A stretch of 35,473 nt of DNA from a virus (Duplodnaviria > Heunggongvirae > Uroviricota > Caudoviricetes): IMG/VR virus record IMGVR_UViG_2850773344_000008; one strand, written 5' to 3'. The position numbers and the translations under genes were made by a program. The notes under the pieces are model-generated. The model saw nothing but the letters and a program-made list of their open reading frames with translations, ran no database searches and was not told the DNA's origin. Shown here in pieces: positions 11,475 through 25,906 of this stretch. How positions within the stretch are numbered: position 1 is the stretch's first letter; each line of letters begins with the position of its first letter.

Positions 11475-12161
11475 ATGACCTCAATAAACATATTTATGAC
11501 AGTTGCTGATTTCAAACGGCCCAAATTGGAGCTCCCAAACGGGGCAAACAAACTACTACTGCACTCTTGCTGTGCTCCATGTTCCGGTGAGGTGATGGAG
11601 GCGCTTCAGGCCTCGGGAATCGACTACACCATCTTTTTCTACAACCCGAACATTCATCCTCAGAAAGAGTATTTAATTCGTAAGGATGAGAATATTCGCT
11701 TTGCTGAACAACACGGCGTGCCGTTTATTGATGCTGATTACGACACAGACAACTGGTTTGAACGAGCCAAAGGAATGGAATGGGAGCCCGAACGAGGGAT
11801 CCGTTGCACCATGTGTTTTGACATGCGTTTTGAGCGGACAGCGCTGTACGCCGCTGAAAATGGTTTCAGTGTGATCAGCAGTTCACTGGGCATTTCACGC
11901 TGGAAAAATATGCAGCAGGTTAACGACTGTGGGCGGCGAGCCGTCGCGCATTATCCGGGCATGGTGTACTGGGATTATAACTGGCGCAAGCAGGGCGGCT
12001 CGTCCCGTATGATTGAAATCAGCAAGCGCGAAAAATTCTATCAGCAGGAATATTGTGGCTGTGTGTATTCTCTGCGCGATACCAATCTACACCGCAAATC
12101 TCAGGGACGCCCTCTTATCAAAATTGGTCAACTCCACTACGGTAAAGAAGAGAAGGAGTGA
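11475..12161 (+). CDS. QueH-like (DUF208) Fe-S protein, putative epoxyqueuosine reductase
   Basis: 228 aa; signature [11 protein letters not shown] plus downstream Cys pairs (CTMC, CGC) as in DUF208/QueH proteins. Confidence 0.55.
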
Positions 12162-12388
12162 TTTTATGGGGCACCTTTCTGATTGATTTCATATTGGCGA
12201 GGTAAGTAGAATGACTGCGGGTGCTTGAGGCTATCTGCTTCAGGCATGAACACCAAAAGGCAGATAGAGAAAAGCCCCAGTTAACATTACGCGTCCGGCA
12301 AGACGCTTAACATTAATCTGAGGCCAATTTCATGCTTTGCACATGTAGGTTAGCCTCTTACATGCCGAAAGGCAAGGAGAAGCAGGCT

Positions 12389-12544
12389 ATGAAGCAGCAA
12401 AAGGCGATGTTAATCGCCCTGATCGTCATCTGTTTAACCGTCATAGTGACGGCACTGGTAACGAGGAAAGACCTCTGTGAGGTACGAATCCGAACCGGCC
12501 AGACGGAGGTCGCTGTCTTCGTAGACTACGAATCCAGGAAGTAA
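12389..12544 (+). CDS. Hok/Gef-family type I toxin
   Basis: 51 aa MKQQKAMLIALIVICLTVIVTALVTRKDLCEVRIRTGQTEVAVF...: single TM helix plus conserved Cys/periplasmic tail; AAGGAG 8 nt upstream; long structured leader. Confidence 0.75.
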   Translation: MKQQKAMLIALIVICLTVIVTALVTRKDLCEVRIRTGQTEVAVFVDYESRK

Positions 12545-12621
12545 GAGTGACCGGGTGGGGAGCTGATCCCATCCCCGCCCACCTCTGATGTGTCAGGCAT
12601 CCTCAACGCACCCGCACTTAA

Positions 12622-12664
12622 CCCGCCCATCGCTGTGATCTCTCAGCGTTTCGGCGGGTTTTTT
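12622..12664 (+). terminator. intrinsic terminator downstream of hok-like gene
   Basis: GC stem CCCGCC/GGCGGG enclosing an inner CGCTG/CAGCG stem, followed by T6. Confidence 0.55.
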
Positions 12665-12793
12665 GTTGTTTATTTCCGGTGAATTTGATTCGCGCACCTT
12701 CGCAGATAGAATCGACTCACTTAAGTAGCGCGCAGGGAGAAGAGGGATGGACCCCGAACAGGGGAGAGCTATTTATCTGGAAGGATTCTGAAG

Positions 12794-13081
12794 ATGAAAA
12801 TCGAAGAATTGCGTGAAATTTTTAGTGAAAATGGCCTCTATGCTGTGCGCGTTGAGAATGGAGCGATTGTCAGCCATTGCCGCATTAGATGTTTGCAATC
12901 TCAACAAAGGAAGAGCGGTGCTGTGTTATTTTATTTTTGTAATGGACTTCTGACGGACGGTTTTATTTTGCGTGAGGACGAATTTGTCACATCATTACGG
13001 GTTTTGAAAAAGATTGGTTTTAAGGCTGGTTTTCTGCTTTTGCTGAAGAATAAACTCATCTACAATCTTGAGCAGGATTGA
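12794..13081 (+). CDS. hypothetical protein (AT-rich orphan)
   Basis: 95 codons, markedly AT-rich relative to neighbours; no recognisable motif. Confidence 0.3.
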   Translation: MKIEELREIFSENGLYAVRVENGAIVSHCRIRCLQSQQRKSGAVLFYFCNGLLTDGFILREDEFVTSLRVLKKIGFKAGFLLLLKNKLIYNLEQD

Positions 13082-14749: not shown

Positions 14750-14826
14750 GGCCCTTTAGCTCAGTTGGTCAGAGCGAGCGACTCATAATCGCCAGGTCGC
14801 TGGTTCAAGTCCAGCAAGGGCCACCA
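14750..14826 (+). tRNA. tRNA with CAT anticodon (Ile2-lysidine type or Met)
   Basis: 77-nt cloverleaf: acceptor GGCCCTT/AAGGGCC, anticodon loop CTCATAA, T-loop TTCAAGT, encoded CCA. Confidence 0.8.
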
Positions 14827-14827
14827 A

Positions 14828-14904
14828 CCACCACTAGCTCATCCGGATAGAGCATCAACCTTCTAAGTTGACGGTGCGAGGTTCGAGTCCTCGGTGGTGG
14901 GCCA
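14828..14904 (+). tRNA. tRNA-Arg (anticodon TCT)
   Basis: 77 nt: acceptor CCACCAC/GTGGTGG, anticodon loop CTTCTAA, T-loop TTCGAGT, CCA. Confidence 0.8.
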
Positions 14905-14906
14905 GC

Positions 14907-14981
<75 letters not shown>

Positions 14982-14984
14982 TAT

Positions 14985-15059
<75 letters not shown>

Positions 15060-15871: not shown

Positions 15872-16663
15872 TTAAGCAGCCATCTGATGATATTTTTCCC
15901 TGAAGGCTGCCGGGGAGATATTCCCCAGACGAGAGTGACGACGCTGACGATTGTAGAAAATCTCAATGTATTCCCGTATTACTGAGATGGCTTCATCCCG
16001 GTTATTAAAACGATAGTGGCTCAGGCTCTCATTTTTCAGCGTTCCCCAGAAGCTTTCCATCGGAGCGTTGTCGTAACAGTTACCTTTACGCGACATTGAT
16101 GTTTTCAGACCAAACTGCTCCTGTATGACCCGGTAATCGTATGCGCAGTACTGTGAACCTCGATCAGAGTGGTGGATTAGCCCGGCAGGTGGGCGCTGGC
16201 TCCTGAGCGCCATAAACAGGGCTTTACCTGTCAGCTCTTTTGTCATGCGCTCTCCCATGGCGTAGCCGACAATTTCGCACGTATAAACATCTTTGATGCC
16301 AGCAACATACGTCAGGTCCGCCACCCAGACCTGATTTGGTGCTGTAGGAGCGAACGTCTGGTTCAGCAGATTTGGCGCAACTGGCAGATTGTGGTTCGGG
16401 TTCGTAGTCGCTCTGAACTTGCGTTTCTGCTTACAGCGTAGCCTCAGCTCCTTACGAAGACGTGCCAGTCGGTCACGACCAACGATGATGCCATTCTCTG
16501 CCAGCTCCGTCTGGAGCCGCCGGGTTCCATATGTTTCGCGAGTGCGGATATGTGCCACCTTAATCTCCAGTTTTAGCCGCTCATCACTTTGTTTTCTGTC
16601 TGAGGGTTCATGCTGTACCCAGTTGTAATAACCGCTCCTGGATACACCAAATACCTGACACAT
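15872..16663 (-). CDS. IS600 OrfB, 9-codon in-frame deletion variant
   Basis: 263 aa; ...ADLTYVA/GIKDVY... junction instead of ...ADLTYVATQEGWLYLAGIKDVY.... Confidence 0.8.
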   Translation of the reverse strand: MCQVFGVSRSGYYNWVQHEPSDRKQSDERLKLEIKVAHIRTRETYGTRRLQTELAENGIIVGRDRLARLRKELRLRCKQKRKFRATTNPNHNLPVAPNLLNQTFAPTAPNQVWVADLTYVAGIKDVYTCEIVGYAMGERMTKELTGKALFMALRSQRPPAGLIHHSDRGSQYCAYDYRVIQEQFGLKTSMSRKGNCYDNAPMESFWGTLKNESLSHYRFNNRDEAISVIREYIEIFYNRQRRHSRLGNISPAAFREKYHQMAA

Positions 16664-18437: not shown

Positions 18438-18784
18438 TAACGCTGCCGACCGGTACCAAAATCTGGATCATCGCTGGCATCACAGATATGCGTTGTGGCT
18501 TCAATGGCCTGGCTTCGAAGGTGCAGAACACGCTGAAAGATGACCCGTTCTCCGGGCATATCTTCGTCTTCCGGGGCCGCAGTGGCAAAATGGTGAAAAT
18601 ACTGTGGGCCGATCGTGACGGGTTATGCCTGTTCACCAAACGTCTGGCCGGTGACCCGGGAAGGGAAAGTGCACCTGACGCCAGCTCAGTTATCCATGCT
18701 ACTGGAGGGGATCGCGTGGCCACATCCCAAACGGACAGAACGGCCTGGCATCCGGATATAACCCGTGATAAAACAAGGGAATGA
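18434..18784 (+). CDS. IS66-family Orf2 (TnpB)
   Basis: 116 aa [28 protein letters not shown].... Confidence 0.8.
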
Positions 18785-20382
18785 ACAATGAACTCCCCGA
18801 TGATATTGAGCTGCTTAAAGCCATGTTGCGTAAGCAACAGAGTCGGCTTCGACAGTATGCCTGTCAGGTCGCGGGCTATGAGCAGGAAATTGAACGGCTG
18901 AAAGCGCAACTCGACAGGTTGCGTCGTATGTTGTTCGGCCAGAGTTCAGAGAAAAAGCGTCATAAGCTTGAAAATCAGATCCGACAGGCAGAAAAACGAC
19001 TGTCGGAACTGGAAAACCGGCTGAACACAGCCAGAAATCTTCTGGAAGATGCATCGTCAGTCACAGATTCACCTGACACCAGTCCCCCGTCAGAAAACCC
19101 GATCGCCAGTAAGCCTGAATTCCCGGGACGAAAATCTTCACGAAAACCGCTGCCGGCAGAACTTCCCCGGGAGACACATCGCCTTCTGCCTGCTGAAACC
19201 AGTTGCCCGGCCTGTGGAGGTGTTCTGAAAGAAATGGGGGAAACAATCTCAGAGCAACTGGATATCATTAATACCGCCTTTAAAGTTATCGAAACCATAC
19301 GTCCCAAACTGGCCTGTAGCCGGTGTGATGTCATCGTTCAGGCACCACTTCCTCCTAAACCGATCGAACGCGGTTATGCCAGTGCAGGGTTACTTGCACG
19401 GATCCTGGTCAGCAAATATATGGAACATATCCCTTTATATCGCCAGTCAGAAATATACGCGCGACAGGGCGTGGAGCTGAGCCGTAATACCATGGTGCGC
19501 TGGGTATCAGAAATGGCAGACAAACTCCGTCCTCTGTATATAGCGCTGAATGACTATGTTCTGGAGGCAGGAAAGGTGCACGCAGATGACACTCCGGTGA
19601 AAGTACTGGCCCCGGGGAACGGAAAGACGAAAACGGGTCGTCTGTGGGTATACGTCAGGGATGATCGTAATGCGGGTTCATCCCTGCCGGCAGCCGTCTG
19701 GTTCGCGTATTCGGCAGATCGCAAAGGAGAACATCCGCAGCTCCACCTGGCAAAGTATCAGGGCGTACTGCAGGCTGATGCCTATGCAGGTTATAACGTA
19801 CTGTACGAAACGGGCCGGGTGAAGGAAGCCGGGTGCCTGGCCCACGCCCGCCGAAAAATCCATGACGAGGATGTGCGCCGTCCGACAGAAATGACTCAGG
19901 AAGCGCTCAGACGGATAGCAGAGTTATACGACATAGAAGCGGAGATACGTGGCAGTCCGGCAGAGGAACGGCTTGCAGTCAGAAAAGCCAGAAGCGTCCA
20001 GTTGATGCAGTCGTTGTACGACTGGATACAGTTGCAGAGGAAAACGCTGTCGAAACATGCGGAGATGGCGAAGGCGTTCGACTATATCCTGAATCACTGG
20101 AATGCGCTGAACGAGTTCTGTCGTGACGGCTGGGTGGAAATAGACAACAACATCGGTGAAAACGCGTTACGATCGGTGGCGGTTGGAAGAAAAAATTATC
20201 TCTTTTTCGGCTCAGACAAGGGAGGAGAAAGTGCGGCGATCATCTACAGTCTGCTGGTCACCTGCAAACAGAACGAAGTGGAGCCGGAGGACTGGTTGCG
20301 CGAAGTGATCGAGAAGCTCAATGACTGGCCGTCGAACCAAGTGCATGAACTGCTGCCCTGGAACTTCTCGTCTGTAAAATAA
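18781..20382 (+). CDS. IS66-family Orf3 (TnpC, DDE transposase)
   Basis: 533 aa; N-terminal coiled coil/leucine zipper, CxxC...CxxC zinc motif (CPACGG...CSRCD), C-terminal DDE core. Confidence 0.85.
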
Positions 20383-20921: not shown

Positions 20922-22090
<1,169 letters not shown>

Positions 22091-24677: not shown

Positions 24678-25043
24678 ATGATTGATGTCTTAGGGCCGGA
24701 GAAACGCAGACGGCGTACCACACAGGAAAAGATCGCAATTGTTCAGCAGAGCTTTGAACCGGGGATGACGGTCTCCCTCGTTGCCCGGCAACATGGTGTA
24801 GCAGCCAGCCAGTTATTTCTCTGGCGTAAGCAATACCAGGAAGGAAGTCTTACTGCTGTGGCCGCCGGAGAACAGGTTGTTCCTGCCTCTGAACTTGCTG
24901 CCGCCATGAAGCAGATTAAAGAACTCCAGCGCCTGCTCGGCAAGAAAACGATGGAAAATGAACTCCTCAAAGAAGCCGTTGAATATGGACGGGCAAAAAA
25001 GTGGATAACGCACGCGCCCTTATTGCCCGGGGATGGGGAGTAA
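24678..25043 (+). CDS. insC: IS2 InsC
   Basis: 121 aa; one substitution relative to copy 1 (KKWIAHAPL vs KKWITHAPL). Confidence 0.85.
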
Positions 25044-25906
25044 GCTTAGTCAGCCGTTGTCTCCGGGTGTCGCGTGCGCAGTTGCACGTCATTCTCAGAC
25101 GAACCGATGACTGGATGGATGGCCGCCGCAGTCGTCACACTGATGATACGGATGTGCTTCTCCGTATACACCATGTTATCGGAGAGCTGCCCACGTATGG
25201 TTATCGTCGGGTATGGGCGCTGCTTCGCAGACAGGCAGAACTTGATGGTATGCCTGCGATCAATGCCAAACGTGTTTACCGGCTCATGCGCCAGAATGCG
25301 CTGTTGCTTGAGCGAAAACCTGCTGTACCGCCATCGAAACGGGCACATACAGGCAGAGTGGCCGTGAAAGAAAGCAATCAGCGATGGTGCTCTGACGGGT
25401 TCGAGTTCTGCTGTGATAACGGAGAGAGACTGCGTGTCACGTTCGCGCTGGACTGCTGTGATCGTGAGGCACTGCACTGGGCGGTGACTACCGGCGGCTT
25501 CAACAGTGAAACAGTACAGGACGTCATGCTGGGAGCGGTGGAACGCCGCTTCGGCAACGATCTTCCGTCGTCTCCAGTGGAGTGGCTGACGGATAATGGT
25601 TCATGCTACCGGGCTAATGAAACACGCCAGTTCGCCCGGATGTTGGGACTTGAACCGAAGAACACGGCGGTGCGGAGTCCGGAGAGTAACGGAATAGCAG
25701 AGAGCTTCGTGAAAACGATAAAGCGTGACTACATCAGTATCATGCCCAAACCAGACGGGTTAACGGCAGCAAAGAACCTTGCAGAGGCGTTCGAGCATTA
25801 TAACGAATGGCATCCGCATAGTGCGCTGGGTTATCGCTCGCCACGGGAATATCTGCGGCAGCGGGCTTGTAATGGGTTAAGTGATAACAGATGTCTGGAA
25901 ATATAG
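25001..25906 (+). CDS. insD: IS2 InsD
   Basis: 301 aa; one substitution relative to copy 1 (MDS vs MDN). Confidence 0.9.

Follow-up and report, generated by a model that had tools for sequence, protein, structure and literature searches.

The closest described relative of the locus analysed here is hokW/mokW/sokW of the Stx2 phages 933W and Sp5 (VT2-Sakai). In Sp5 the 51-aa hokW reading frame alone is toxic; sokW RNA has been detected and, made from its own promoter, neutralises HokW (PMC8621323). Neutralisation depends on RNase III and Hfq, and upon prophage induction sokW vanishes, leading to HokW synthesis and faster lysis (PMC8621323). Takada et al. used primer YO-421, which replaces TAGGTTA by CCGGCTC, to obtain a promoter-less sokW; the mutant −10 box abolishes protection (PMC8621323). 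For the paradigm of these systems, the locus of plasmid R1 (parB), the mechanism has been described: translation of mok through the hok initiation region enables translation of hok (PMC4147584, PMC9841398). The mok start codon of R1 (116–118) lies 58 nt from that of hok (174–176), its GAGG is required, and it is translation of mok up to the hok start that matters, not the Mok product (PMC9841398). The 3′ stem-loop of the R1 mRNA is protective and its dcb element overlaps the Sok promoter (PMC9841398).

We have analysed a stretch of 35,473 nt of viral DNA (Caudoviricetes; IMG/VR record IMGVR_UViG_2850773344_000008), referred to below as the window. Its hok locus was compared with 31 homologous loci from six genera (Escherichia, Kluyvera, Photorhabdus, Pantoea, Erwinia and Citrobacter); the relatives' loci were gathered by a single-protein Hok search. 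Near-identical enterobacterial hok sequences were also seen on tiny contigs of Xanthomonas pisi (L021, 431 bp) and Acinetobacter idrijaensis (L016, 275 bp); their occurrence in these unrelated genera is probably due to assembly contamination.

Results and discussion

Elements of the locus and comparison with described hok systems

Judged by its sequence, the segment 12183–12666 of the window is a complete type I hok/mok/sok locus of the hokW type. The following elements were assigned.

12183–12212, + strand: predicted hok/mok mRNA promoter, −35 TTGATT (12183–12188), 18-nt spacer, −10 TAGAAT (12207–12212); consensus scan
12219–12666, + strand: full-length hok/mok mRNA, inferred 5′ end about 12219–12220, 3′ end past the T-run; Rfam model start and fold
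12216–12230, + strand: tac element at the mRNA 5′ end, pairing with fbi, ucb or the adjacent metastable partner; folds and covariation
12221–12247, + strand: metastable nascent hairpin, 12221–12231/12237–12247, which uses the 5′ arm of the 5′ hairpin; fold of RNA to 12270
12231–12267, + strand: 5′ hairpin, 10 bp, 12231–12240/12258–12267; MFE fold and conservation of helix 2
12272–12280, + strand: ucb/anti-SD box, partner of the mok Shine–Dalgarno when closed and of tac (12219–12226) when open; Rfam consensus structure and leader folds
12320–12323, + strand: mok Shine–Dalgarno GAGG, 8 nt 5′ of the mok ATG; invariant in 31 loci
12332–12544, + strand: mok reading frame, 70 codons, in frame with hok; ORF list and mokW annotation in 933W
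about 12340–12266/12270, − strand: Sok antisense RNA, about 71–75 nt; misc_RNA sokW of 933W mapped by alignment to 12270–12340
12347–12375, − strand: Sok promoter, −35 TTGCCT (12375–12370), 17-nt spacer, −10 TAACCT (12352–12347), +1 at about 12340; homology to 933W
12351–12357, + strand: dcb UAGCCUC, partner of the mok Shine–Dalgarno when open, overlapping the Sok −10 box on the opposite strand; pairing scan and folds
12374–12379, + strand: hok Shine–Dalgarno AAGGAG; read from the sequence, nearly invariant in 31 loci
12389–12544, + strand: hok toxin gene, 51 aa; Pfam PF01848 (HOK_GEF), 4.3e-23
12527–12530, + strand: TACG at Tyr47, candidate TadA A-to-I editing site (A12528, Tyr to Cys); motif match
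12553–12580, + strand: 3′ stem-loop expected to cap the processed, translatable mRNA; fold and helix 13, 98% paired
12601–12616, + strand: fbi element, partner of tac; pairing scan and folds
12620–12666, + strand: intrinsic terminator, two-tier hairpin and T-run; pairing scan and fold

The preliminary description, made from the DNA letters alone, had proposed a hok-type toxin locus. This is borne out by the HOK_GEF domain, by a match to Rfam RF01794 at 117 bits (gathering score 59) and by near-identity to hokW/mokW/sokW of 933W. The Rfam match spans 12219–12394 at full model length (positions 1–157) and lies on the hok-sense strand; it thus models the mRNA leader holding the Sok target. PHROG 251 (‘MokW-like host killing’) is also matched, at 1e-32.

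The leader (12216–12400) has about 92% DNA identity to that of hokW/mokW/sokW (933W, Sp5/VT2-Sakai). The two loci share a clade-specific extension of the Sok hairpin by 18–20 nt, a 70-codon mok in frame with hok, the Sok promoter hexamers and a Sok length of about 71 nt; tac and fbi are the same. They differ at about 7 of 20 positions in the Sok 5′ tail and mok codons 2–3, and also in the hok −35 region, which is unrelated in 933W and counts against a functional reading. The 933W sequence departs from the window straight after fbi and is without the window's terminator, and its 3′ stem-loop is 7 nt shorter. The window locus sits in the nin region (QueH … DUF1367/NinB-like), whereas that of 933W lies near the right end of the phage.

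R1 presents the same elements in the same order, namely tac, metastable partner, ucb/anti-SD, mok Shine–Dalgarno GAGG, mok, dcb over the Sok promoter, hok Shine–Dalgarno AAGGAG, hok, 3′ stem-loop, fbi and terminator, with 19 mok codons before hok as in the window. The Hok proteins are 41% identical, the R1 mok is out of frame at 58 nt (PMC9841398) whereas that of the window is in frame at 57 nt, the Sok hairpin of R1 is shorter, and R1 is plasmid-borne while the window copy is prophage-borne. The hokC (gef)/mokC/sokC loci of Escherichia chromosomes resemble the window in an in-frame mok (69 aa), the same tac and a Hok of 78% identity; they lack the extended Sok hairpin and occupy another chromosomal site. 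A K-12-like hokC copy has lost fbi through an insertion, whereas the window retains it.

The window protein bears the PGAP name of hokD (relF), which lies in the Qin prophage of E. coli K-12. The toxins are 88% identical, the 3′ UTRs are homologous, with fbi and the outer stem of the terminator, and both loci reside in lambdoid prophages. The K-12-type hokD (L009), however, aligns only from the hok Shine–Dalgarno on and is without tac, ucb, mok and a Sok gene, all of which the window has. A hokD-type locus (toxin without tac, mok and sok) is ruled out by the full leader of the window; the name ‘HokD’ thus suits the protein, not the locus.

The toxin

Hok of the window scores 81.1 bits against PF01848 (cutoff 22) and has the conserved residues C15, T17, L29, E31 and E40. 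It is 100% identical to one Shigella flexneri protein; identities to HokW, K-12-type HokD, the Hok of hokC and R1 Hok are 98%, 88%, 78% and 41%. Compared with HokW of 933W/Sp5, 50 of 51 residues are identical and the lone change is E50R. Inactivating substitutions had been named in the preliminary description as a possible objection; E50R falls at a non-conserved C-terminal position. The hok ATG is nearly invariant in the 31 loci. TACGAA (12527–12532) is invariant in 31/31 loci from six genera while flanking codons vary. In E. coli the equivalent residue, Tyr46 of hokC/D/E, undergoes editing (PMC5630033), and by analogy TadA editing at A12528 is a possibility. The window Hok has a hard-coded Cys30, and Tyr47, with its TAC codon, occupies the position that pairs with this Cys.

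Genomic context

The locus is in the nin region of a defective, IS-riddled lambdoid prophage in a Shigella flexneri-type chromosome. Prophage genes around it encode a CI-like repressor, Rha/Ash, DUF977, QueH and, beyond hok, a NinB-like DUF1367 protein; YbcO, a Q-like DUF1133 protein, four tRNAs, lysozyme and portal are also present. The hok locus is untouched amid heavy IS disruption of the prophage; the disruption itself counts against a functional reading. Six IS3-family transposase ORFs, one of the IS66 family and one of Mu type occur in the window:

3013–3831, 6039–6944, 15872–16663, 18781–20382, 20922–21761, 25001–25906, 31729–32547 and 32947–34581: transposase ORFs

Megablast found the region in 4713 of 5426 complete E. 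coli genomes, typically at about 91% identity and with the product annotated ‘HokD’; 99.8% identity was seen in only two of these genomes, both rich in IS600, IS1 and IS2. A 1.55-kb stretch around hok differs from Shigella flexneri SFBU1023 by 1 nt in 1553. An IpaH-type type III effector gene (LRR_TTSS and NEL E3 ligase domains; 1–1812, + strand) opens the window and extends beyond position 1. This effector, together with the one-base match to SFBU1023, points to Shigella flexneri or a very close relative as the host.

Several further features of the prophage were recorded. A QueH (epoxyqueuosine reductase) homologue (11475–12161, + strand) lies immediately 5′ of hok; numerous E. coli prophages show this combination. 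Just 3′ of the Q-like DUF1133 ORF is an array of four tRNA genes (Met-CAT, Arg-TCT, Thr-TGT and Gly-TCC; 14750–15059, + strand), a placement shared with many other lambdoid phages and Stx phages. A second promoter-like site, TTGATT-16-TAGAAT (12685–12712, + strand), whose hexamers are those of the hok promoter, is located right after the hok terminator and 5′ of a 95-aa ORF (12794–13081, phrog_340). Rfam matches to C4 antisense RNA (75.7 bits) and isrK (61.5 bits) fall within 4933–5121 (− strand), inside the ORF 4324–5289 (− strand), which shows a Pfam ‘Phage_ASH’ match on the same DNA, then a Rha domain. This part of the lambdoid prophage resembles an anti-repressor control region of the P1/P7 type, and RNA genes may lie under the Ash ‘protein’ match.

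Structure of the mRNA

The Rfam model starts at 12219, 7 nt 3′ of the hok −10 box. This box and the next bases are invariant in 933W, HannyBb and FDAARGOS_943; the −35 region is not conserved. When 12219–12666 is folded, the whole transcript is strongly structured (MFE −189.3 kcal/mol, z = −8.1 against shuffles), in keeping with the structured leader described earlier. The 8-bp stem CTATCTGC/GCAGATAG reported there (12231–12238/12260–12267) is present and grows to 10 bp in the MFE fold. A perfect 8-bp stem alone is within chance, as about 2–3 are expected per 570 nt and several unrelated ones were found. We nevertheless regard the 5′ stem as real because it is conserved with compensatory exchanges in the 31 loci: as helix 2 it has 91% of cells paired and three pairs with changes on both sides (AU/UA/GC at column 18–51).

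Nascent RNA to 12270 folds as the metastable hairpin, which is 97% paired in the alignment against 31–49% in slid controls. The same stem (12221–12231/12237–12247) also appears in truncated folds, where a reading as the tac/ucb stem was rejected: comparison with the R1 model (PMC9841398) and with the Rfam consensus identifies it as the metastable nascent hairpin. The tac/ucb stem is placed at 12219–12226/12272–12278; it is 99.5% paired but invariant and hence uninformative on covariation. Pairing of the anti-SD box with the mok Shine–Dalgarno constitutes helix 3 of the 31-locus closed structure, and the Shine–Dalgarno/dcb pairs (12320–12324/12353–12357) have a core that is invariant in the 31 loci.

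The predicted pairing of tac with fbi covers 15 nt (−27.7 kcal/mol); in the relatives fbi is found 45–56 nt 3′ of the stop codon. Covariation of one tac position with two alternative partners (‘coupled covariation’) is a published hallmark of hok mRNAs. This family trait is reproduced in the 31-locus alignment, where a single U/C position of tac pairs with fbi as UA in 20, CG in 8 and UG in 3 loci (column 7/410) and with the metastable partner as UA in 21, CG in 8 and UG in 2 (columns 7–32). The closed structure as a whole is 82% paired, compared with about 42% for slid controls, and 33 of its pairs have changed on both sides among the 31 loci. The full-length RNA loses about 20 kcal/mol when constrained to the open form (−168.9 vs −189.3 kcal/mol); in the truncated RNA the open and closed forms lie within 1–3 kcal/mol of each other, and for the leader alone the MFE structure is the open form, in agreement with the Rfam consensus. 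Predicted folds of the window sequence accommodate each of the four conformations in the published hok mRNA pathway. Sequence elements, pairings, conservation and covariation are established for the window locus.

The two-tier 3′ hairpin of the preliminary description was likewise recovered (12620–12627/12653–12660, inner stem 12631–12635/12644–12648, T-run to 12664; z = −4.1). A simple terminator scan missed it because the loop exceeds 8 nt. Like the 5′ stem and the tac/fbi pairing, the terminator is conserved with compensatory changes in the 31 loci. In relatives its outer stem encloses a loop of 4 nt, and the window therefore carries a 23-nt loop insertion; the 18-nt core of this insertion has no second copy in the window and so is not a dispersed repeat there. 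The 3′ stem-loop carries a 7-nt insertion without counterpart in the other copies. These two insertions could alter 3′ processing and count against a functional reading; together with E50R they are the traits peculiar to this lineage.

The mok frame

The reading frame starting at 12332 had been taken as an in-frame upstream extension and not as a separate mok-like frame. It is in fact the homologue of mok: in 933W the annotated mokW and hokW end at one stop codon. In the window the mok ATG is 57 nt 5′ of the hok ATG. The spacing is 57 nt (in frame) in 20 of the 31 relatives, and mok is also in frame at 57 nt in an IncFII plasmid with an R1-identical Hok; the notion that mok is always out of frame is thereby ruled out. 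At the 58-nt spacing (4/31) a +1 frame product of 55–68 aa results, and at 56 nt (7/31) a 19-aa peptide terminating in an ATGA overlap. GAGG precedes the mok ATG in every one of the 31 relatives. Since the spacing varies between 56, 57 and 58 nt, it is position, not a separate frame, that defines mok; as read from the alignment, mok is characterised by a conserved site of initiation and not by its frame or peptide, in agreement with the R1 result on mok translation (PMC9841398).

Sok and its promoter

The preliminary description had placed an antisense RNA antitoxin in the leader. The sokW annotation of 933W maps onto the leader of the window, and toxin and antisense antitoxin have been demonstrated experimentally for hokW (PMC8621323). 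The absence of a protein antitoxin ORF, also remarked upon, agrees with the demonstrated RNA antitoxin of the near-identical hokW locus. Sok of the window would begin with an unpaired 5′ tail, whose complement is the region of the mok start, and continue with a long terminator hairpin and GGGGCUUUUCU; its fold has −30.2 kcal/mol (z = −4.7). A look for a minus-strand promoter within 12250–12400 had been suggested. The sigma-70 consensus scan called none on this strand, the Sok promoter being below its threshold, and it is homology to 933W that places the promoter at 12347–12375. The promoter has 7 of 12 sigma-70 consensus positions, which counts against a functional reading; it is identical to that of 933W save for one spacer base, and the −10 box mutated in PMC8621323 is identical in the window. 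By analogy with sokW, Sok is presumably expressed at the window locus.

Proposed mechanism

Transcription, processing, toxicity and the biological role of the window locus are inferred from its homologues, and we propose the following course. A stable transcript about 445 nt in length would arise from the weak promoter at 12183–12212. In the nascent mRNA, tac would be sequestered in the metastable hairpin 12221–12231/12237–12247. On completion of the mRNA, tac would pair with fbi and the anti-SD box (12272–12280) would mask the mok Shine–Dalgarno, excluding both ribosomes and Sok. Slow 3′ trimming to the stem-loop at 12553–12580 would then strip fbi, allowing tac to pair with ucb and the mok Shine–Dalgarno to shift to the SD/dcb hairpin. 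Abundant but unstable Sok would bind the mok start and lead to cleavage by RNase III; where Sok has decayed, mok would be translated instead. Ribosomes crossing the 57 nt from the mok ATG would open the hok initiation site, and Hok would enter the inner membrane, causing death or arrest.

Alternative explanations

We consider it very probable that the module is intact and functional and operates as in R1 and hokW. The locus might instead be a silent relic, structurally intact but with its killing ability lost, as in several chromosomal hok loci of E. coli K-12, lingering in a decaying prophage. The prophage is indeed riddled with IS3-family and IS66 elements, lineage-specific insertions are present in the 3′ stem-loop and terminator, and in earlier work, cited in a preprint, several E. 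coli chromosomal hok loci, including hokA/B/C, reportedly failed in post-segregational killing (bioRxiv 10.1101/2025.08.07.668861). Degenerate relatives do occur: tac is mutated in L008, L009 is without tac, mok and sok, L017 is without fbi and the ORF of L043 is disrupted. The known inactivating lesions are, however, all absent from the window locus. Its tac, fbi, ucb, dcb, both Shine–Dalgarno sequences, both starts and the Sok hexamers and hairpin match functional hokW, E50R is at a non-conserved C-terminal position, and divergence from another S. flexneri genome is 1 nt in 1553. A relic thus seems improbable.

Even less credible is a single gene whose functional product would be the 70-aa protein from 12332, an N-terminally extended Hok. 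The two ORFs do share a frame and most database entries of close relatives are 70 aa long, but the upstream start is at 56 or 58 nt in 11 of 31 loci, so that the extension is not conserved as protein. Moreover, the hok Shine–Dalgarno AAGGAG and the hok ATG are nearly invariant, while the N-terminal codons of mok are the most variable part of the locus; in R1 only mok translation to the hok start counts (PMC9841398), and the 51-aa hokW ORF is toxic alone (PMC8621323). A type II-like arrangement, in which the antitoxin is a neighbouring protein, would find its candidate in the 95-aa ORF at 12794–13081, which is without known function (phrog_340, no Pfam match) and lies directly 3′ of hok behind its own promoter-like site. 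A terminator stands between the two, however, the neighbours of hokW in 933W differ and linkage is thus not conserved, PADLOC gave no match for Hok or its neighbours, and the near-identical hokW locus has a demonstrated RNA antitoxin (PMC8621323); we accord this arrangement practically no weight.

Diversity of the Sok 5′ tail

Among 55 unique phage and prophage copies, nucleotide diversity peaks at 12326–12350 (pi 0.30–0.34, mean 0.09). This is the sharpest peak of the locus and coincides with a 20-nt stretch (12324–12345), the Sok 5′ tail and mok codons 1–5. The patch occurs as 20 alleles in the 55 copies, against 2–12 alleles in flanking segments of equal length, and compensatory changes are seen in the segment with which it pairs in the closed fold (helices 4–5). 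S. flexneri SFBU1023 has three hok copies with three different patch alleles. Predicted duplexes of the SFBU1023 tails are much stronger for cognate (−31 to −34 kcal/mol) than for non-cognate pairs (−7 to −15 kcal/mol). It is conceivable, though we would not favour it at present, that the patch is under diversifying selection and that co-resident hok/sok loci are mutually orthogonal, each Sok controlling only its own hok mRNA. The diversity may instead reflect relaxed constraint, since no mutation can disturb the complementarity of a cis-antisense pair and the sequence of the Mok peptide is dispensable.

Conclusions

The exact sequence of the window locus is already present in public Shigella and E. 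coli genomes under the label ‘HokD’, and the locus has already been characterised through its near-identical homologue hokW–sokW; there is nothing new in the locus itself. The proper label is hok/mok/sok (hokW-like) with a minus-strand Sok RNA, in place of a bare ‘HokD’ CDS. By analogy with its homologues, the module may serve addiction of the defective prophage and/or may help lysis upon induction, if induction is still possible. Beyond annotation the finding matters little: it adds one case of a type I module for addiction or lysis assistance that has stayed intact in a Shigella prophage otherwise shattered by IS elements. Some general value attaches only to the hypervariable recognition tail of Sok: if the proposed orthogonality is true, this tail could account for the coexistence of several near-identical hok/sok copies in one genome with no cross-regulation.
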